A stretch of 64,000 bases of DNA, taken from NCBI GenBank assembly GCA_944391965.1, contig CALXVH010000005.1:4131-68130 (forward strand), read 5' to 3'. This document shows positions 9,706 through 34,869 of this stretch, piece after piece. This stretch comes from an uncultured Clostridia bacterium (lineage in GTDB: Bacteria > Bacillota > Clostridia > TANB77 > CAG-508). Numbering within the stretch: the stretch's first letter is position 1; every line of letters begins with the position of its first letter. The notes beneath the pieces are model-generated. The model did no database searches. It had not been told where the DNA came from and worked only from the letters and a program-made list of their open reading frames with translations. Made by a program: the position numbers and the translations under genes.

Positions 9706-10947
9706 TTATTCTATATTTTCATCTTTTATATAATATTTTGTTCCTAACATTTTATCTGGCAAATACTGTTGCTCTACATAATGACCTGGGAAATCGTGTG
9801 GATATAAGTATCCTTCATGATAACCTAATGCTTCCATTCCCTCTACTGGAGCATTTCTAATATGCATTGGTATCTCACCAGTATCTTTATTAGCAACATC
9901 ATTCAATGCTCTATTTATTGCTAAATATGATGCATTAGATTTCTTAGAAGTTGCTACATATACTGCAGCTTCTGCTAAAATTATTCTTGCCTCTGGCATA
10001 CCAATCATATGTACTGCTTGCATGGCAGAAGTTGCCACAACTAGTGCATTTGGATTTGCCATACCAACATCTTCAGAAGCACATATTACTATTCTTCTTG
10101 CAAGAAAAACTGGATCTTCCCCACCGTTTAATGCTCTTGCTAAATAAAATATAGCTGCATCAGGGTCTGAACCTCGCATTGACTTTATAAATGCACTTAT
10201 ATTGTCATAGTGGCTATCTCCTTTTTTATCAAAAATAGCTTTTCTTTCTTGAACACATTCTTTTGCAACTTCATTTGTTATATGTATATATCCATCTGAT
10301 GATATTTCTGTAGTTAAAACAGCTACTTCTAGTCCATTTAATGCTGTTCTTACATCACCATTTGCAGTATCTGCTATTTTTTCTATTGTTTCATCAGATA
10401 TCTTAATATCGTAGCTTTTTAAGCCATCTTCTCTTTCTAAAGACATTTTTAATACTTTTATTATGTCTTGTTTAGTTAATGGGTTTAATTTGAATACCAT
10501 AGACCTAGAAATTAAAGCTTTATTTACTTCGAAATATGGATTCTCTGTTGTAGCTCCTATTAGTATAACTGTTCCATCTTCTACATATGGCAATAAAGCA
10601 TCTTGTTGTAATTTATTAAACCTATGGATCTCATCTATAAATAATATGCTCTTACCTTGTGGATTTAACATCATGTTTTTTGTTTCTTCTACCACTCTTT
10701 TTATATCTGAAACTCCTGCTGTAACTGCATTTATTTTATAGAATTTATACTTAGTTGTTTCACTTATTACTCTTGCAAGTGAAGTTTTACCACATCCTGG
10801 TGGTCCAAATAAAATTATACTTGATAATCTATCTGCTTTTATTGTTCTGTATAATATTTTATCTTTACCTAGAATATGTTCTTGTCCAACATATTCGTCC
10901 AATGTTTTTGGTCTCATTCTATATGCTAGTGGTTTGCTTAAGTCCAT
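9706..10947 (-). CDS. rarA: Replication-associated recombination protein A (AAA+)
   Basis: PLAYRMRPKTLDEYVGQ, GPPGCGKT, FIDEIHRFNK, SAFIKSMRGSDPDAA. Confidence 0.95.
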   Translation of the reverse strand: MDLSKPLAYRMRPKTLDEYVGQEHILGKDKILYRTIKADRLSSIILFGPPGCGKTSLARVISETTKYKFYKINAVTAGVSDIKRVVEETKNMMLNPQGKSILFIDEIHRFNKLQQDALLPYVEDGTVILIGATTENPYFEVNKALISRSMVFKLNPLTKQDIIKVLKMSLEREDGLKSYDIKISDETIEKIADTANGDVRTALNGLEVAVLTTEISSDGYIHITNEVAKECVQERKAIFDKKGDSHYDNISAFIKSMRGSDPDAAIFYLARALNGGEDPVFLARRIVICASEDVGMANPNALVVATSAMQAVHMIGMPEARIILAEAAVYVATSKKSNASYLAINRALNDVANKDTGEIPMHIRNAPVEGMEALGYHEGYLYPHDFPGHYVEQQYLPDKMLGTKYYIKDENIE

Positions 10948-10957
10948 CTATCTCACC

Positions 10958-11557
10958 TTACATTCCTAAAAAGCTTAATGCCTTCCTAATTATATCCTCA
11001 ACAGTTAGTGTATTAATATCTATTTTAGCTAATACACCTTCTATTTCTTGTCTTGTATATCCTAATACTTTTAATGCTTGAATAGCTTCTTCTAACTTAT
11101 TATCTCCTACAATGTTTGATGTAAGCTCTATATCTTTTGTTTGAATAGCCTCTTCTGTTTTTAATTTATCCTTTAGTTCTAATATTATTCTTTGTGCTGA
11201 TTTTGTTCCTATTCCTGGTACTTTTGTTAAAGTTTTGACATCGTTAGAAATTACTGCTAATGCAAATTGTGATGGTGTAATTGCAGATAACATTGTTATT
11301 GCAGATTTTGCACCAACTCCACTTACTCCTATTAATAATTCAAACATTCTTAATTCTTCATTTGTTATAAAACCATAAAGACTTAATTCATCTTCTTTTA
11401 CATTCATATAAGTATATATTTTTACCGTTTTGCCTGTATCTTCTAGTCTTTGTATAGCTGATTGTGACATAAATATCTTAAATCCTATCCCATTTACATC
11501 TACAACTATATAATTTAATGCTTTTACTTCTAAAGTTCCTTTTATATATGAAAACAT
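10958..11557 (-). CDS. ruvA: Holliday junction branch migration protein RuvA
   Basis: MFSYIKG, LIGVSGVGAKSA, VPGIGTKSAQRIILELKDK; start moved to the ATG after AAAGGAG. Confidence 0.95.
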   Translation of the reverse strand: MFSYIKGTLEVKALNYIVVDVNGIGFKIFMSQSAIQRLEDTGKTVKIYTYMNVKEDELSLYGFITNEELRMFELLIGVSGVGAKSAITMLSAITPSQFALAVISNDVKTLTKVPGIGTKSAQRIILELKDKLKTEEAIQTKDIELTSNIVGDNKLEEAIQALKVLGYTRQEIEGVLAKIDINTLTVEDIIRKALSFLGM

Positions 11558-11623
11558 ATCTTTCTCCTTTGCAAACAAATTTTCTCCTTCGGTATTATAT
11601 CACACATTTTCTTTTTTGCAATA

Positions 11624-11833
11624 TTATTCATCCTTTTTGTATTCTAATATATCTCCTGGCTCACAATTTAATACTTCACACAATTTATTTAATGTTGAAA
11701 ATCTTATAGCTTTTCCTTTATTTGTTTTTAGTATTGATAAATTAGCTGGTGTAATTCCTATTTTTTCTGCTAGTTCATTTGATGGCATTTTCCTTTTTGC
11801 CATAACTACGTCTAAATTTACTATTATAGACAT
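11624..11833 (-). CDS. XRE/YozG family HTH regulator
   Basis: LAEKIGITPANLSILKTNKGKAIRFSTL...CEPGDIL. Confidence 0.9.
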   Translation of the reverse strand: MSIIVNLDVVMAKRKMPSNELAEKIGITPANLSILKTNKGKAIRFSTLNKLCEVLNCEPGDILEYKKDE

Positions 11834-11847
11834 CTTATCACCGTCCT

Positions 11848-12360
11848 TTAAATTGTTAAATCATTCTCTTCCTTATGTCTTATTGCTTCTTTATAAATTT
11901 CTAAAAGCATAATAATTCCTATTCCTAGCACAACAAATATTAAGCCAATAAATGCTATAAACATACTAGAAAGCTGAGCATATGTTCTTATATATAAATC
12001 TTCTAATAAATCATCTCCTACTAAAAATTTGAATAATAGTGAAATTGCTATAAATAAAATTCCTGCAATAATAAATGACGCCCATATAATTTTTAATCTT
12101 TTAATATTCTTTTTATTAAAAGCATCTTCTTCCTCGAAAGTTTTAAATATCTTTATAAAATTATAAACAACTATTACTGCTGGTATTGCAGTTACCATGA
12201 ATAAATATAATATTATGTTTTTTGGTTCTTCTATAATATTAGCCTTTGTAATAATCGAAAAAGCAATTAAGGCAATCTCTAAAATTATTACTATTGCTAA
12301 AACTACTTTAAGACCAATTTTTACTCCTGCTGATAAACTATTTTTTCCTAATATCTTCAT
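11848..12360 (-). CDS. DUF2975 family membrane protein
   Basis: Four TM segments, C-terminal AIRHKEENDLTI; usual partner of YozG. Confidence 0.85.
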   Translation of the reverse strand: MKILGKNSLSAGVKIGLKVVLAIVIILEIALIAFSIITKANIIEEPKNIILYLFMVTAIPAVIVVYNFIKIFKTFEEEDAFNKKNIKRLKIIWASFIIAGILFIAISLLFKFLVGDDLLEDLYIRTYAQLSSMFIAFIGLIFVVLGIGIIMLLEIYKEAIRHKEENDLTI

Positions 12361-26572: not shown

Positions 26573-27388
26573 TTAAGCTGATTTTAATTCAAGTCTTAGC
26601 TTATCAGCTATCATTGCAATAAATTCACTATTTGTAGGTTTGCCTTTTGTAGCAGATACAGTATATCCAAATATATTTTCTACTTCATCTGCTTTTCCTC
26701 TACTCCATGCGACTTCTATTGCATGACGAATTGCACGTTCTACTCTACTTGGAGTTGTATGAAATTTCTTAGCTATGTCGGGATATAATTGTTTTGTTAT
26801 TTGATTTATTACTTCTATATCATTTACTACCATCATAATTGCTTCTCTTAAATATTGATATCCTTTTATATGTGCTGGTACTCCTACTTCATGTATTAAA
26901 TTTGTTACCAAAGCCTCTAAATTTCTTTCATCTTTCTTGTTTTCTGGAGATATGTCTATGTATTGTGGTTTGCTTTCTCTTGCAATAAAATTGTTATTTT
27001 GACTAGGTTGATAATATTTTAAATCTCTTATTCTTTTTATTAATAATTCTATATCAAATGGTTTTACAACATAATATTGTGCACCTAATGATATAGCCTT
27101 TTGAGTAATTTTATCTTGACCTACTGCAGATAACATTATACTTATTGGTTTTTTAGTCATTGTAGTTTCATTAAGCTTTTCTAAAACTCCTATTCCATCT
27201 AGATGTGGCATTATTACATCTAATAATAAAATATCTGGATGAGTTCCTTTAATAATTTCAAAAGCTTCATTACCATCCTTTGCAATACCTACAACTTCAA
27301 TATCTTCCATTTTTTCTAAATATGCTGATAAAGTCCTTGTAAAATCAATATTATCATCAGCAATTAATATAGTAATTTTTTCTTTCAA
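26573..27388 (-). CDS. spo0A: Sporulation master regulator Spo0A
   Basis: Receiver domain ([11 protein letters not shown]); [43 protein letters not shown]. Confidence 0.97.
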
Positions 27389-30852: not shown

Positions 30853-32637
30853 CTATTCATTTATATTATCAGTAAAATATTCTTCTTCATATCCTGAAAT
30901 AACTTTATAATATTTTCCTATAAAATATGGTTCTCCATTTTGTTCTGCAATTTCGTAAGTAGGTTCAAGAATTACATTACCGTCTTTGTCTATAACTCCC
31001 CACTTACCATCTTTCTTTATTCCTGCAAAACCTAATTCATTTAGTTCTGTAACTTTTTCATATTGATAATCAACTTTTATATTATTGTTTTTATCTACAA
31101 ATCCCCACATTCCATCTTTTTCTGAAGCAAAAAGTGTATTATCTGGGAATATATCAAAATCACTTTTTAAAGAACCATCTAAACCAACATATTCTGTTTG
31201 TGTGGTTGAATATACTTTTATATAATTATTATTTATCTCCAATTTTCCATTTTCCATAGATACAATTTTACCTATTTGTTTATTATATAATTCTAATGTA
31301 TTACCTGTCAACGCCTGAATAATGTCACTATTATCTAGTTTTTGAATTACTTCGTAATTTATTGGAAGCAATTCTTCTCCTTTATCATTTATTATTCCTG
31401 ATTTACCAGAATCTCCTCCTACAATAAAATAATTGTCAAACAAATATTGGATATAATTATATTTATTTTCTATAATTGTATTCCCATCTTTTGAAATAAC
31501 ACCATATTTATCATTTGTATCTATAGATATATTATAGTTTTCATTATTAGTCATTAGTATATTTGTAAATTGAAGATTTTCTTGTTTAGTACCTGATAAA
31601 TCAAACGTTTCTGAATTTCCATTTTTAGTAGCTATAATATAATTTCCTGGTATTTGAATTTGATCATAGTCTACATTTAAAATTTGTTTTCCATTTAAAT
31701 CTGTTACACCATATTTATTATCTTTTTGTAATATTAATAATTTACTATCTTCATTATAATTTATAGCTTGATAATTATTATCTAATAAAAGTTTATCATT
31801 TTTATATAACTGTATATTTCCATTTTTTTCTGTAACAAGATAAACATTTTCGTCATCTTTAATATTGTTCATTCTATATACTCTATCAAAATCTGTTTCT
31901 AAAAATTGCTCTCTATTACTATTTATATAACCATATTGAATTTTTCCCTCTTCATTCTTTACTCCTACAATATATCCATCTAATGTATATTCTTTTTCTG
32001 TACTGTAATAACTATCTCCTGTTATATAATCATATTTAAAATCTAGTAATCTTCCGCCATTTATATTTACAACACCATATTTATCACCTTTTTTAGCAAT
32101 CAATTCGCCTTCTCTATATGGCATATTTCTTATTTCATCATATTCTGGTTTTATTATACTTTTTCCACTAAAATCTATTATTCCATACTTACCATCTTTT
32201 TGGTATTGTAAAACTGTTTTTTCGTATGGGATGCTACTTACAATTTCTTTTATATCTATAGTATTTATATTCTCATAATTTGTTAATATTTCTTCATTTT
32301 TCTCATTTAATACTTTAGTTTTATATTCTCCTGATGTAGCATTATAGTCATATATACATATAAATATAGGTTCTTTTGGATTTGGAATTTTTATTGTATT
32401 ATATTCTGGCTCAATAATTATATTTCCTGATTTGTCTATAACTCCTGATTTCCCATTACTTATTATTTTATAATAATTTATATCTGCATTTTCTATTTTC
32501 TCTACAGTATAATTTTCTTTACTTTTATTTATAGCAATAATTATTCCACTTATTATTGCTATTATTAAAATTACTAATAATACAATTATACTTATTTTCT
32601 TTAGTTTTCTATTATCTTTTCTTTCTTGAAATTTCAT
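30853..32637 (-). CDS. WG (KWG) repeat-containing membrane-anchored protein
   Basis: N-terminal TM; repeated GKYGII/WGFVDK/WGVIDK units. Confidence 0.85.
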   Translation of the reverse strand: MKFQERKDNRKLKKISIIVLLVILIIAIISGIIIAINKSKENYTVEKIENADINYYKIISNGKSGVIDKSGNIIIEPEYNTIKIPNPKEPIFICIYDYNATSGEYKTKVLNEKNEEILTNYENINTIDIKEIVSSIPYEKTVLQYQKDGKYGIIDFSGKSIIKPEYDEIRNMPYREGELIAKKGDKYGVVNINGGRLLDFKYDYITGDSYYSTEKEYTLDGYIVGVKNEEGKIQYGYINSNREQFLETDFDRVYRMNNIKDDENVYLVTEKNGNIQLYKNDKLLLDNNYQAINYNEDSKLLILQKDNKYGVTDLNGKQILNVDYDQIQIPGNYIIATKNGNSETFDLSGTKQENLQFTNILMTNNENYNISIDTNDKYGVISKDGNTIIENKYNYIQYLFDNYFIVGGDSGKSGIINDKGEELLPINYEVIQKLDNSDIIQALTGNTLELYNKQIGKIVSMENGKLEINNNYIKVYSTTQTEYVGLDGSLKSDFDIFPDNTLFASEKDGMWGFVDKNNNIKVDYQYEKVTELNELGFAGIKKDGKWGVIDKDGNVILEPTYEIAEQNGEPYFIGKYYKVISGYEEEYFTDNINE

Positions 32638-32753
32638 TTCAAATATTCCTCCTATTTGAATATTCCCATTTTTCGTTAGTTATAGTCAACTTATACATAA
32701 TTATATAGTTTTGCAAAATATCTGTCAATGAAATTTCTTTATCTATTTAATTT

Positions 32754-34007
32754 TTACATTCCAGTTTTAGGAAGCTTTTTCACCTCATTTTTTACACCTA
32801 AACTATTTCTAAAAACATCCACTTCTGGTCTTTCCTCTTTCGTATTCTTTATTGTTACTGTTAATTCCTCATTAAATTCTGGTCTTATCTCTATAAAACC
32901 ATTATATAAAATATATCCAGCTGGTGATTGAATCTCTTTTATATAATATGTCCCTGGAATTATGTTCTCGATTGTTGCTTCTCCATTTTTATCTGTTCTA
33001 ATTTCTGAAATTATTATTTCTTTGTTTTTATCTAACAACTGAAATACTGCATTTTCTAAATTTTTCTCTCCAGTTTCGTCCTTTTTTATTATTTTAATTT
33101 TCGTTTCATTTTTATTATAATAAATTTCTTTTTCTCCTACTCCATTTTCATATGATACACCTGTTATTGCATAATCTTGATTGCTCGAATTTGGCGCTCT
33201 TCCTATAAAAATTGGTTTTGTTTCTACATTTGCATATGCCTTCAATTTTATACTTCCTCCATCACTTAATTCACTTATTGGAATAGATATTCTAAATTTT
33301 TCATTTGAATTAAATTCTTGTCTTGGTTCATTGTTTAAATCTGTTATTATTGCACTATTCGTTACATCTTCTTTATTTATTGTATATGTGTTAATTGGTC
33401 CTTCTGAATTGATATAAAATTCTTTACTTATACAACCAGGCATCTGTTCATTTTCTTCCCAATTTTTAGTTTCTTCAATTATATTTAATTTTGAAGATAT
33501 TTGATTATTTTCTCCATCATTAACTTTTAATAAAATATTATTTAAAGCATTCCATGTTCTTTGACCTGCTTCACCTATTGGTGAAAAATCGTTAATTGTA
33601 TAATTATATAATACTGAATATACAGCCATTTTAGTTGCCATAAAAGCTTCTCCTATTGTGTTACATCCCATTTCTTCAGGTGTTTTATATGGATATCCAT
33701 TTGTTATAGCTTTCCATATATATACATTCTTTATAACTCCATCTAAATTTACACTATAACTTATATTATCATCTACTCCTGCTTTATTTTTATCTAAACA
33801 GTATGCAGGATATTCTTTGCCATTTTCGTTATATACAACTATATACGTTTTGACTACAATATCCCCTTTTTTTAATAATCTTCCACAATCTCCTTTTGAA
33901 TATAAATTTCTACTATCTATATTTGCAAATGTTGTTATTGTTATAGCATTTAATACACATACTATCATACAAAAAATTATAATAAATTTTATAACTATTC
34001 TTTTCAT
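32754..34007 (-). CDS. Secreted thioester-domain (TED) plus SpaA/CnaB adhesin ending in LPKTGM*
   Basis: Signal peptide; AYCLD; ATKMAVY; QDYA; CnaB K-D/YIKE/TIKN; C-terminal LPKTG. Confidence 0.85.
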   Translation of the reverse strand: MKRIVIKFIIIFCMIVCVLNAITITTFANIDSRNLYSKGDCGRLLKKGDIVVKTYIVVYNENGKEYPAYCLDKNKAGVDDNISYSVNLDGVIKNVYIWKAITNGYPYKTPEEMGCNTIGEAFMATKMAVYSVLYNYTINDFSPIGEAGQRTWNALNNILLKVNDGENNQISSKLNIIEETKNWEENEQMPGCISKEFYINSEGPINTYTINKEDVTNSAIITDLNNEPRQEFNSNEKFRISIPISELSDGGSIKLKAYANVETKPIFIGRAPNSSNQDYAITGVSYENGVGEKEIYYNKNETKIKIIKKDETGEKNLENAVFQLLDKNKEIIISEIRTDKNGEATIENIIPGTYYIKEIQSPAGYILYNGFIEIRPEFNEELTVTIKNTKEERPEVDVFRNSLGVKNEVKKLPKTGM

Positions 34008-34642
34008 TAATTTTCTCCTTTCCATTTTATAGCCTGTACATATCTACGATATTCAGGTTCGTTTTCTACACATGTTATTAATGTTATTTTATCTTGGCTA
34101 CTATTTTCTAATTTACTCCAATCCGTATCTTTTATAATTCCAATTTCACTTACACTATACTTAGATATCTCTCCATTATATGTATAAATAACTAAATCTC
34201 CTTTTTGTAATAACTTTATATTTTGAAAATAGTTAACTGGATACCCTCTATTATGGGCTGCAAGTCCTACGTTTCCTTTATCTTTCGGAGTTTCAACAAA
34301 ATGACCTACATATTTATTCATAATATTAGTACTCGTTCCCTCCGATATAGGTGCAATAAGATTAATTTTTGGGATTTCTATCTGCCAAATATTGTAAATA
34401 TCTTTGCGTTGTTCTTCATTTTCTATTATATGTTGAGCTTTAGCAGACTCAATAATAGTGTTATTAGGAATTTTTAATTCTATTTCTATTTTATCTGGAA
34501 TAATCTTCTCTACAGAATTATTAAAAATTTGGTTTTGATTTATAAAAAATGTTTGATCTAAAAAAATAAAAATTATTATAGAAATTATGAGAGTAATTAA
34601 AATTATATTTTCATGACTAAAATTACATATGGATACCACCAC
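34007..34642 (-). CDS. Class D sortase (start codon uncertain)
   Basis: N-terminal TM; GLAAHNRGY; TLITC..R triad; TAATG stop/start overlap with the downstream gene. Confidence 0.9.
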   Translation of the reverse strand: MVVSICNFSHENIILITLIISIIIFIFLDQTFFINQNQIFNNSVEKIIPDKIEIELKIPNNTIIESAKAQHIIENEEQRKDIYNIWQIEIPKINLIAPISEGTSTNIMNKYVGHFVETPKDKGNVGLAAHNRGYPVNYFQNIKLLQKGDLVIYTYNGEISKYSVSEIGIIKDTDWSKLENSSQDKITLITCVENEPEYRRYVQAIKWKGEN

Positions 34643-34733
34643 CTATTTTGAAAAAAATTAAATGAATAAAATTGCAATTTTCATTATATTACATTATTCT
34701 TATTGTTTTGTAAAGCTTTTTCGTAAGACATTA

Positions 34734-34740
34734 TTCGACA
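34734..34740 (-). promoter_or_regulatory. Spo0A box
   Basis: Perfect TGTCGAA about 105 nt upstream of the sortase gene; a single 7-mer can occur by chance. Confidence 0.45.
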
Positions 34741-34809
34741 TTTTATCTTATTCGCAATTTAAAGCATATATATCTTTATTAAATATATAATTCTACAAGT
34801 CAAAAAAAT

Positions 34810-34863
34810 AGGGATTTAAGGAACGTCCCCAAATCCCTAACAAGGAATGTCCTCAAAATCCCT
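34810..34863 (-). repeat. REP-like repeat, copy 5 plus partial copy 6
   Basis: AGGGATTTAAGGAACGTCCCCAAATCCCT then AAGGAATGTCCTCAAAATCCCT. Confidence 0.85.
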
Positions 34864-34869
34864 ATTTAC

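Follow-up and report, generated by a model that had tools for sequence, protein, structure and literature searches.

The subject of this analysis is a two-gene unit in a 64,000-nucleotide stretch of the genome of an uncultured Clostridia bacterium (assembly GCA_944391965.1, contig CALXVH010000005.1, positions 4,131 to 68,130), which as a whole is referred to below as the window. The unit consists of a sortase gene followed by the gene of a secreted adhesin, which carries a sortase motif at its C-terminus. Both genes are on the minus strand and lie where an earlier reading of the same letters, here called the original prediction, had placed them (Table 1). They are joined by a TAATG overlap, in which the stop codon of the sortase (TAA, 34009-34007) shares a base with the start codon of the adhesin (ATG, 34007-34005). 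Because this ATG is in the overlap and has AAAGGAG 8 nt upstream, the adhesin is taken to be 417 residues long and not the 423 residues of the longest open reading frame (ORF); 417 residues is also the length of nearly all of its homologues. The protein ends ...VKKLPKTGM, which is immediately followed by TAA.

For some thirty years, the sorting signal of sortase substrates has been defined by three parts: an LPXTG motif, a hydrophobic segment and a basic tail, and this rule is built into the programs used to predict surface proteins. The window adhesin has the first part of this canonical signal for cell-wall sorting (CWSS), and has neither the hydrophobic segment nor the C-terminal basic tail. 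Its only conserved basic residues near the motif lie before it. All three frames of the spacer that follows the stop contain stops, and between the adhesin stop and the promoter of the next gene, which encodes a WG-repeat membrane protein, there is no terminator and no coding continuation. This promoter matches the consensus at 12 of 12 positions and starts after 25 nt, with the ATG of the WG-repeat gene at 32637 and a ribosome-binding site before it. Thus, the DNA after the adhesin stop is regulatory and not coding. The original prediction had described the locus in these same terms: a signal peptide, a YCLD motif, a CnaB/SpaA domain and an LPKTG-M-TAA end, no hydrophobic anchor or basic tail in any frame, a TTGACA promoter within about 30 nt of the stop, an intact H/TLITC/R triad and a TAATG overlap, all of which hold.

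The tail-less end is conserved well beyond this organism. A scan of species-representative genomes gave 331 stretches that encode a relative of the adhesin, and the best 80 loci were analysed. In 80 of 80, the protein ends with LPxTG and exactly one further residue (76 M, 2 K, 1 I, 1 Y), followed by TAA in 59 and TAG in 21. When the tails are aligned from their right-hand ends, L, P, T and G are 100% conserved and the Met 95%. Before the L, two positions (K/R at -8 and -7) are approximately 75% Lys, and the 20 linker positions that precede this basic pair are only 17-35% conserved. No hydrophobic continuation is found in any downstream frame of the 80 loci, where a terminator or the next promoter comes directly after the stop. 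Similarly, among the 120 best database homologues of the adhesin, which extend down to 46% identity, 108 have the motif and exactly one residue (107 Met, 1 Ile), and the remaining 12 lack the motif, most of them being truncated or frameshifted entries.

An end shared by 80 of 80 loci places the tail-less form far beyond chance. As this end is invariant next to a variable linker, is followed by two different stop codons and is bordered by non-coding DNA, the alignments indicate that a C-terminal signal of 6-8 residues is under strong purifying selection and is not a product of decay. The orthologues do not carry a transmembrane (TM) segment and tail, and the view of the original prediction that this is a non-canonical sorting system rather than a truncation is strongly supported by the comparison of sequences. 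The single residue is also a feature of the wider family. In a survey of tail length in the 150 best 50%-identity representatives of proteins related to the adhesin by its thioester domain (TED) and CnaB domain, the number of residues after the motif is bimodal: 70 have one, 52 have at least 18, 3 fall between and none has zero. Hydrophobic or aromatic residues (M 29, Y 17, F 13, W 2, C 2, L 1) predominate at the terminal position in these relatives, and K, E, R and N are also seen.

The tail-less end is coupled to a particular sortase. A sortase homologue lies directly upstream of the adhesin gene, on the same strand, at 78 of the 80 loci, with a gap of -71 to +189 nt. For the reverse test, genomes were scanned with an alignment of the sortase clade, which is characterised by the motifs GHF.(E/S)T, GN.GLAAHNRG, TDW and TLITCVE..P..R. 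The clade was found at a minimum of 592 genome loci, and the C-terminus of the downstream substrate was readable in 49 of the best 80. Here, 48 of the 49 substrates are tail-less, with ends such as LPKTGY, LPRTGY, LPRTGF, LPKTGM, LPKTGK, LPKTGC, LPKTGI and similar. The check suggested by the original prediction, that is, whether LPxTG-X-stop ends are conserved and linked to this sortase clade, has therefore been answered positively in both directions (80/80, 108/120 and 48/49 tail-less, with the sortase upstream in 78/80). The one canonical substrate, at L151, has LPRTG, a TM segment and RKEK. When the catalytic domains are placed in a tree, the other sortases of the window genome join on one long branch next to L151, a branch whose placement is uncertain, and all remaining sortases form a single group, whose readable substrates are all tail-less. 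From the sequences, L151 could represent the ancestral state. This locus (9833-12239, in an uncultured Clostridia metagenome-assembled genome) carries the canonical-tail substrate LPRTGELDINNYLLGTCFMGFTVIFKSNRFARKEK and, in the tree, branches close to the clade's base.

Many substrates of the clade are giant adhesins of 1500-2700 aa, and the giants range to 2000-3800 aa. They share a conserved last domain (...GEYVT...FG.V..GF...GG.Y...W...W.T.V...LPxTG[YF]), and no Pfam or NCBIfam model covers this C-terminal domain with its LPxTG[YF] end. Some are located on mobile DNA: metagenome contig L113 (1-16963; also L114 and L115) is a conjugative element with a 315-aa clade sortase, which shares the clade motifs, and a 2320-aa TED protein that ends LPKTGW-stop. 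The gene order in this element is ParB, RepA_N, sortase, Bro-N/ANT, adhesin, DUF3801, TraG/VirD4 coupling protein, Maff2 and TrbL. On L113, the start of the sortase gene lies within a region shared with a 410-aa gene that has no annotation. A search of plasmids gave a single match, on a C. perfringens plasmid, and that protein has a canonical tail. Cultured organisms that carry the system are Anaerotignum lactatifermentans DSM 14214, Oscillibacter sp. 1-3 and Oscillospiraceae bacterium 38-13.

The window genome itself provides controls. Five of its seven other sortase genes adjoin a gene for a protein with a sortase-type motif, TM segment and basic tail, and a sixth LPKTG protein (C44) is also canonical. 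Examples of these canonical tails are LPKTGIADN...RKVRDYKGI, TPKTGV...RKNKI and NPHTGD...KKNK. Other genes of the genome end normally with the same stop codons.

The adhesin is, as judged from its sequence and structural model, a class II TED carried on one CnaB domain, with a predicted Cys-Gln thioester and predicted isopeptide bonds in the stalk. The Pfam domains span residues 73-165 (TED) and 309-395 (SpaA), numbered on the 423-aa ORF, and the sequence matches PDB entry 6fwv (BaTIE) at 3e-16. The model has a mean local confidence (pLDDT) of 89.4 and, in Foldseek, matches 6fwv at 5.5e-25 over 361 columns and 6fwy (EfmTIE86) at 4.4e-15; together, the model and these matches reveal a TED fold with the inserted beta-sandwich (slipknot). 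In class II TEDs, the bond is formed between the Cys of a [YFL]-C-hydrophobic-hydrophilic motif and a Gln in a weak, late-strand hydrophobic-Q-hydrophilic motif (PMC6194298). The Gln of QDYA, which the original prediction had proposed as the thioester residue, fits this rule as Gln277 and is invariant, as is Cys70, in 30 diverse homologues of 34-76% identity. The putative isopeptide triad of the stalk (Lys308, Glu358 and Asn388) is likewise invariant in 30 homologues. A third TED motif, TQxx-hydrophobic-W, contains a Gln and a Trp that are not essential for bond formation (PMC6194298). In the window adhesin this motif is not present and the sequence reads TKMAVY instead (residues 126-131, 33615-33632); Lys126 is at least 90% conserved, and most of the subfamily has T-K-x-A-[VI]-Y. 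In solved structures the Gln and Trp of the motif sit against the thioester, and by analogy the amine of Lys126 could lie near the predicted thioester, where it could tune this bond or quench it through an internal Lys-Gln isopeptide bond. Cys41 and Cys115 of the adhesin are also conserved. An N-terminal anchor of the lipoprotein type was considered for the adhesin and rejected, as the Cys residues in the signal peptide are not conserved and there is no lipobox.

The sortase matches the Pfam Sortase model (PF04203) at 1.5e-21, which is above the cut-off. Its catalytic residues, His130, Cys191 (in TLITC) and Arg199, are invariant in 19 aligned clade sortases, and the clade motifs listed for it are GHF.ET, GN.GLAAHNRGY, TDW and TLITCVEN.PEYRR. 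The catalytic domain is modelled with a pLDDT above 90, and Foldseek matches the model to sortases at 1e-12. The assignment of the start codon is tentative: the GTG that opens the ORF at 34642 lacks a Shine-Dalgarno sequence, and in more distant homologues the Met falls opposite ATA at 34633-34631. A strong Shine-Dalgarno sequence (GGTGGTGG) followed, at a favourable spacing, by a one-codon start-stop, ATG-TAA, is present at 34623-34643 (minus strand); it lies inside the 5' end of the sortase ORF, out of frame, and is conserved in relatives.

The original prediction had named this enzyme a sortase D, and this label is not established. The top two PDB sequence matches, 2kw8 (9e-13) and 4d70 (3.1e-12), are both class D, and orthologues are named 'class D sortase' by PGAP. 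However, the scores against the class D models NF033746 (47.5 bits, cut-off 165) and NF058671 (SrtD; 60.5 bits, cut-off 140) are far too low, and the highest subclass score, 67.8 bits for the class C model NF033745, is still below its cut-off of 160; the class E model, at 50.8 bits, is also far below cut-off. Foldseek returns class C, D and A structures at near-equal values (approximately 1e-12) with many class C entries among the top matches, so that the classes are not separable. The aligned linkers of the clade sortases contain no DP[WFY] lid motif, and the chain stops 12 residues beyond Arg199, without a C-terminal TM helix. Because it lacks the lid and the C-terminal anchor, it is not a typical pilus (class C) sortase. 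By sequence, it appears to be a generic sortase, small and anchored at its N-terminus, that belongs to a distinct class-D/C-like clade and whose class is not settled.

Upstream of the sortase lies a conserved control region. Positions 34669-34740 are preserved near base-for-base across species as TGTCGAA-taa-TGTCTTA-CGAAAAAGC-TTTACA-N17-TAATAT followed by AAATTGCAATTT, and more distant loci have the pattern TGTCAAAtagTGTCGAA. The palindrome is present in 16 of 16 orthologous upstream regions inspected. Judged from this sequence pattern, the region looks like an activator site and an operator, and Spo0A, the OmpR-type regulator encoded next to it or some repressor may bind there. The original prediction had reported a perfect Spo0A box here. 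The box is there, as TGTCGAA at 34740-34734 is the exact 0A-box 7-mer and is conserved, but the bare 7-mer occurs at chance frequency (2 in the window against 1.75 expected), and a link to Spo0A or sporulation is not established. The tandem TGTC arrangement is kept in the promoters of orthologues from species whose protein identity is as low as 47%, and the copy at this operon is the sole tandem one among 19 upstream TGTCGAA sites in the genome. On sequence grounds, the tandem boxes are a candidate activator site for Spo0A or for the OmpR-type response regulator of the adjacent gene. The sole Spo0A C-terminal-domain match of the genome (161 bits) is at approximately 26597-26908 of the window on the minus strand (genome C5:30727-31038), which is approximately 6 kb downstream of the sortase-adhesin cassette and on the same strand. 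As the genome (1.5 Mb, 27.5% GC) has this gene and also encodes SpoIVA, on another contig, the organism appears to be a spore former.

Table 1. Features of the sortase-adhesin locus (window coordinates; residue numbers refer to the 417-aa adhesin or the 211-aa sortase)
Feature	Position	Strand	Basis or remark
Intrinsic terminator of the upstream histidine-kinase gene	34802..34839	-	14-bp stem and T-run; 5' boundary of the sortase-adhesin unit
Tandem TGTC boxes, TGTCGAA-taa-TGTCTTA	34724..34740	-	Starts of the two boxes 10 bp apart; the -35 lies just downstream
Sigma-A-type operon promoter: -35 TTTACA (34714-34709), 17-bp spacer, -10 TAATAT (34691-34686)	34686..34714	-	Promoter scan; block conserved in orthologous loci
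Perfect 12-bp palindrome AAATTGCAATTT	34669..34680	.	Directly after the -10; candidate operator
Sortase ORF	34007..34642	-	211 aa as longest ORF
Sortase N-terminal TM helix (~residues 10-33), disordered linker (38-80), catalytic domain (~85-206)			
Adhesin (sortase substrate)	32754-34007	-	417 aa, secreted
Signal peptide, residues 1-28, predicted cleavage between TFA and N	33924..34007	-	Small -3/-1 residues (S/T-x-A) conserved in homologues; helix 2-26 in model
Class II thioester domain, ~residues 29-300	33108..33923	-	Pfam TED, PDB 6fwv match, model
Cys70 (YCLD); Gln277 (NQDYA); Lys126 (TKMAVY)	33800-33798; 33179-33177; 33632-33630	-	
CnaB/SpaA-type stalk, ~residues 301-402	32802..33107	-	Pfam SpaA 2.1e-19; strand pattern in model
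Variable, charged, disordered linker, residues 403-411, ending in conserved KK	32775..32801	-	pLDDT <60
Minimal sorting signal LPKTG-M (32774-32757) and TAA (32756-32754)	32754..32774	-	LPKTG is residues 412-416
Promoter of the next gene, TTGACA-17-TATAAT	32700..32728	-	12/12 consensus match; conserved in close relatives
WG-repeat membrane protein, 594 aa, N-terminally anchored	30853-32637	-	Next gene after the adhesin

On balance, it is fairly probable that a membrane-anchored sortase, which is co-transcribed and usually translationally coupled with a single dedicated substrate, attaches the tail-less adhesin to the envelope. The best reading of the data is that the dedicated sortase clade reads a minimal LPxTG-X-COOH signal, and the adhesin is probably attached to the cell wall; what follows on the chemistry, the acceptor and the means of retention is inferred. 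Cys191 of the sortase would attack the Thr-Gly bond, the dipeptide Gly-Met would leave and the adhesin would be passed via its Thr carboxyl to an amine of the envelope, most likely that of lipid II or the peptidoglycan cross-bridge. The wall, the isopeptide-locked stalk and the thioester warhead would then form one fully covalent chain. A C-terminal stop-transfer segment would play no part in keeping the adhesin near the sortase. Retention may instead depend on co-synthesis and co-insertion or co-translocation with the sortase from one mRNA, on the late exit of the C-terminus, which leaves the translocon last, on the slow escape of large, folded and wall-entangled proteins, or on an enzyme that directly reads the free carboxylate of the C-terminus at a fixed distance from the bond to be cleaved. 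Reading of the carboxylate would explain why the tail is always one residue, never zero and not variable. The chemistry is plausible because sortases act on soluble LPXTG peptides and because the SrtD of C. perfringens (CpSrtD) is acylated by a free peptide. The peptide in question ends ...LPQTGS, one residue after the Gly, and CpSrtD forms a thioacyl intermediate with it (PMC4498605). Further support for display comes from the giant tail-less homologues that are encoded beside type IV secretion system (T4SS) genes, where surface display is functionally required.

Several points weigh against attachment of this kind. Membrane retention is indispensable in S. aureus: deletion of either the hydrophobic segment or the charged tail of protein A reportedly led to secretion without LPXTG cleavage (Schneewind et al. 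in 1992/1993), and an anchor-less signal should therefore fail with a housekeeping sortase. Any N-terminal tether would be transient, because the signal peptide has a conserved signal peptidase I site. As the clade member L151 has a substrate with a canonical tail, a free C-terminus is not a demand of the sortase fold itself. Finally, no position of the sortase tracks the last residue of the substrate cleanly: the Arg of HNRG is missing from one clade with Lys ends and retained in a second, recent lineage that also ends in Lys.

A more specific proposal, which is offered tentatively, is that the sortase clade is an end-reading transpeptidase, which would recognise a free alpha-carboxylate at a fixed distance from the Thr-Gly bond and release the C-terminal dipeptide. 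It can be likened to the penicillin-binding proteins and L,D-transpeptidases, which release a terminal D-Ala. If true, proteins that are already folded and fully translocated could be substrates of such an enzyme, as might even molecules secreted by neighbouring cells.

The original prediction had listed capture of a fully secreted substrate, ligation to another protein or the spore surface, and release of a covalent adhesin as possible fates, and on the present data each of the three stays a candidate. Of the alternatives to wall attachment, the one that survives best, although it is unlikely, is ligation of the adhesin to another protein instead of peptidoglycan. In this case, the adhesin Thr would be joined to a Lys or N-terminus in a pilus-like polymer or in a membrane or wall protein such as the WG-repeat protein. 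The sortase scores best with class C, the pilus sortases, many of which are also among its top Foldseek matches, the CnaB domain of the adhesin resembles pilin domains and, in pilus assembly, the acyl-enzyme itself is the membrane tether. Against this, there is no pilin motif (WxxxVxVYPK) in the adhesin and no second pilin gene, with one substrate per cassette, and the lid motif and C-terminal TM helix are lacking in the sortase. In addition, some loci lack the WG-repeat gene, which has a promoter of its own, and the giant substrates of the clade (2000-3800 aa) are fibrillar adhesins and not pilins.

Attachment that is specific to sporulation is slightly harder to sustain and also unlikely. 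B. anthracis SrtC, a class D sortase, anchors BasH and BasI in sporulation; it recognises LPNTA, which is followed by a normal TM tail. By the same logic, phosphorylated Spo0A (Spo0A~P) would turn on the operon, the adhesin would be secreted into a confined space, such as the forespore intermembrane space or the sporangium envelope, and it would be joined there to the peptidoglycan of the spore or cortex. A compartment of this kind would account well for the loss of the anchor, and the conserved tandem TGTCGAA-type box upstream of the -35, the presence of Spo0A (in the window) and SpoIVA in the genome and the class D identity of the nearest solved sortases (2kw8 and 4d70) are all in its favour. 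However, the bare 7-mer is not enriched, the direct repeat with its 10-bp spacing fits the OmpR-type regulator equally well, the gene pair of that regulator being directly upstream in approximately 47 of 65 diverged loci, and the promoter is of the sigma-A type. The assignment to class D is weak, and the same sortase clade occurs with tail-less substrates beside T4SS genes in conjugative elements, which points to a vegetative function.

It is more doubtful still that the adhesin is simply released, with the sortase either hydrolysing the motif (and so trimming Gly-Met) or not acting on it, and the motif kept for some other purpose, for example recognition by another factor. Secretion is the textbook expectation for tail-less LPXTG proteins, and the class II TED adhesin of pLS20 works with neither a sorting signal nor a sortase (PMC8092201). 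Release is difficult to reconcile with the near-perfect, two-way co-occurrence with a dedicated sortase, with L, P, T and G that are 100% conserved before a tail fixed at one residue, and with a catalytic triad that is invariant in 19 clade sortases; furthermore, an unattached mating or host adhesin would hold nothing to the cell. Lastly, an artefact or decay (strain-specific truncation, frameshift, assembly error or stop recoding), which a single window from an assembly of 45 contigs, resembling a metagenome-assembled genome, could not rule out, can be set aside almost entirely, as the same end, with either TAA or TAG, is present in 80 of 80 species genomes and hundreds of independent assemblies, is followed by a promoter or terminator and is shared by genomes of cultured isolates, and as other genes of the genome end normally with the same stops.

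Comparison with known systems places the locus close to, and apart from, the canonical CWSS pathway of S. aureus SrtA and protein A. Both have a Sec signal at the N-terminus and LPxTG at the C-terminus, a sortase that is anchored in the membrane and has the Cys-His-Arg triad, and a surface adhesin with isopeptide domains. In contrast, here there is no hydrophobic segment or basic tail, exactly one residue follows the Gly, the basic residues precede the motif and the sortase is dedicated one-to-one to the substrate encoded beside it. As it recurs in hundreds of species, the LPxTG-X ending looks like an undescribed, membrane-anchor-free version of the textbook signal and not like a broken gene: the enzyme family and the motif are the known ones, and one defining part of the signal is missing and replaced by a fixed free end. 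No description of natural LPXTG-X-stop substrates was found in a full-text literature search of limited coverage, in which the string 'LPKTGM' led to papers on streptococcal pilins.

Among sortases, C. perfringens SrtD (4D70) is one of the two nearest solved relatives, and it resembles the window enzyme in its GHF.NT motif, its short Cys-to-Arg loop and its operon with a substrate. It differs in that it has only approximately 29% identity to the window sortase and that its natural, cognate substrate has LPQTGS followed by a normal TM segment and KKREE. The C. perfringens locus is also unlike this one, with a 215-aa, C-terminally membrane-anchored protein just upstream, apparent transporter genes downstream and no TED adhesin. 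B. anthracis SrtC (2KW8) is the best PDB sequence match and is likewise a small, N-terminally anchored enzyme, and a possible link of the promoter to sporulation is a further likeness; unlike the window system, it uses LPNTA with a TM tail, and the window sortase is far below the class D model cut-offs.

On the adhesin side, the TIE proteins BaTIE, EfmTIE86 and SaTIE (6FWV, 6FWY) share the fold, the Cys and Gln motifs, the Lys/Glu/Asn triad of the CnaB stalk and LPxTG. The window adhesin, in contrast, has one stalk domain only and TKMAVY in place of TQxx-hydrophobic-W, and TIE proteins have a canonical TM tail (PMC6194298; PMC8092201 for BaTIE). The mating adhesin TIEpLS20, a class II TED protein encoded by the B. 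subtilis plasmid pLS20, has no LPXTG and is sortase-independent (PMC8092201). It is similar in being a class II TED adhesin with unconventional retention on the cell, and relatives of the window protein are also found on conjugative elements; it is dissimilar in that LPxTG and a dedicated sortase are strictly conserved here. The C. difficile conjugative transposon 023_CTnT carries its own sortase together with collagen-adhesin-like substrates, for which anchor-less signals were not reported (PMC6814731), and it is thus comparable as a mobile element that bears a sortase of its own and CnaB-adhesin cargo.

Surface-protein predictors would miss the anchor-less form or misfile it as broken or secreted, even though it is found in hundreds of gut Clostridia species and in conjugative elements, on covalent (thioester) and giant, mating-type adhesins. 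If the proposed attachment is correct, membrane retention would not be obligatory in sortase sorting, the free C-terminus would be a new candidate determinant of specificity and there would be a natural sortase family adapted to soluble substrates, which is possibly useful for sortase-mediated protein ligation. If end-reading were also true, LPxTG-X-COOH would constitute a second, membrane-independent class of sorting signal, and the enzymes would be naturally optimised ligation catalysts for soluble LPXTG-tagged proteins. Two of the cultured carriers, A. lactatifermentans DSM 14214 and Oscillibacter sp. 1-3, make the question directly testable.

The wider neighbourhood is conserved in the order response regulator, histidine kinase, sortase, adhesin, CNNM-family protein and WG-repeat protein in approximately 47 of 65 diverged loci. 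As this synteny is kept, the locus is chromosomal and vertically inherited in this lineage of gut Clostridia with small genomes; the assemblies concerned are labelled, for example, Clostridium sp. CAG:354 or Candidatus Merdicola. Across a sample of the order, the adhesin is present in 59 of 201 genomes and 14 of 32 genera. Divergence is much faster in the sortase and the adhesin than in the two-component genes next to them, as is expected for surface proteins. A CNNM/CorC-type gene lies between the adhesin and WG-repeat genes in more distant species. A sorting signal split between the adhesin and the N-terminal TM segment of the WG-repeat protein was considered and rejected, as the latter gene has its own perfect promoter and ribosome-binding site and stops intervene; it is further excluded by the absence or displacement of this gene in other loci.

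Finally, the intergenic region after the histidine-kinase gene contains a tandem pair of an approximately 22-nt unit, AGGGATTT(T/G)G(A/G)GGAC(A/G)TTCCTT, at 34802-34865 on the minus strand. A search of the exact type found no other copy of the unit in the window. The second copy is the terminator hairpin of the histidine-kinase gene, and relatives have one to three copies.

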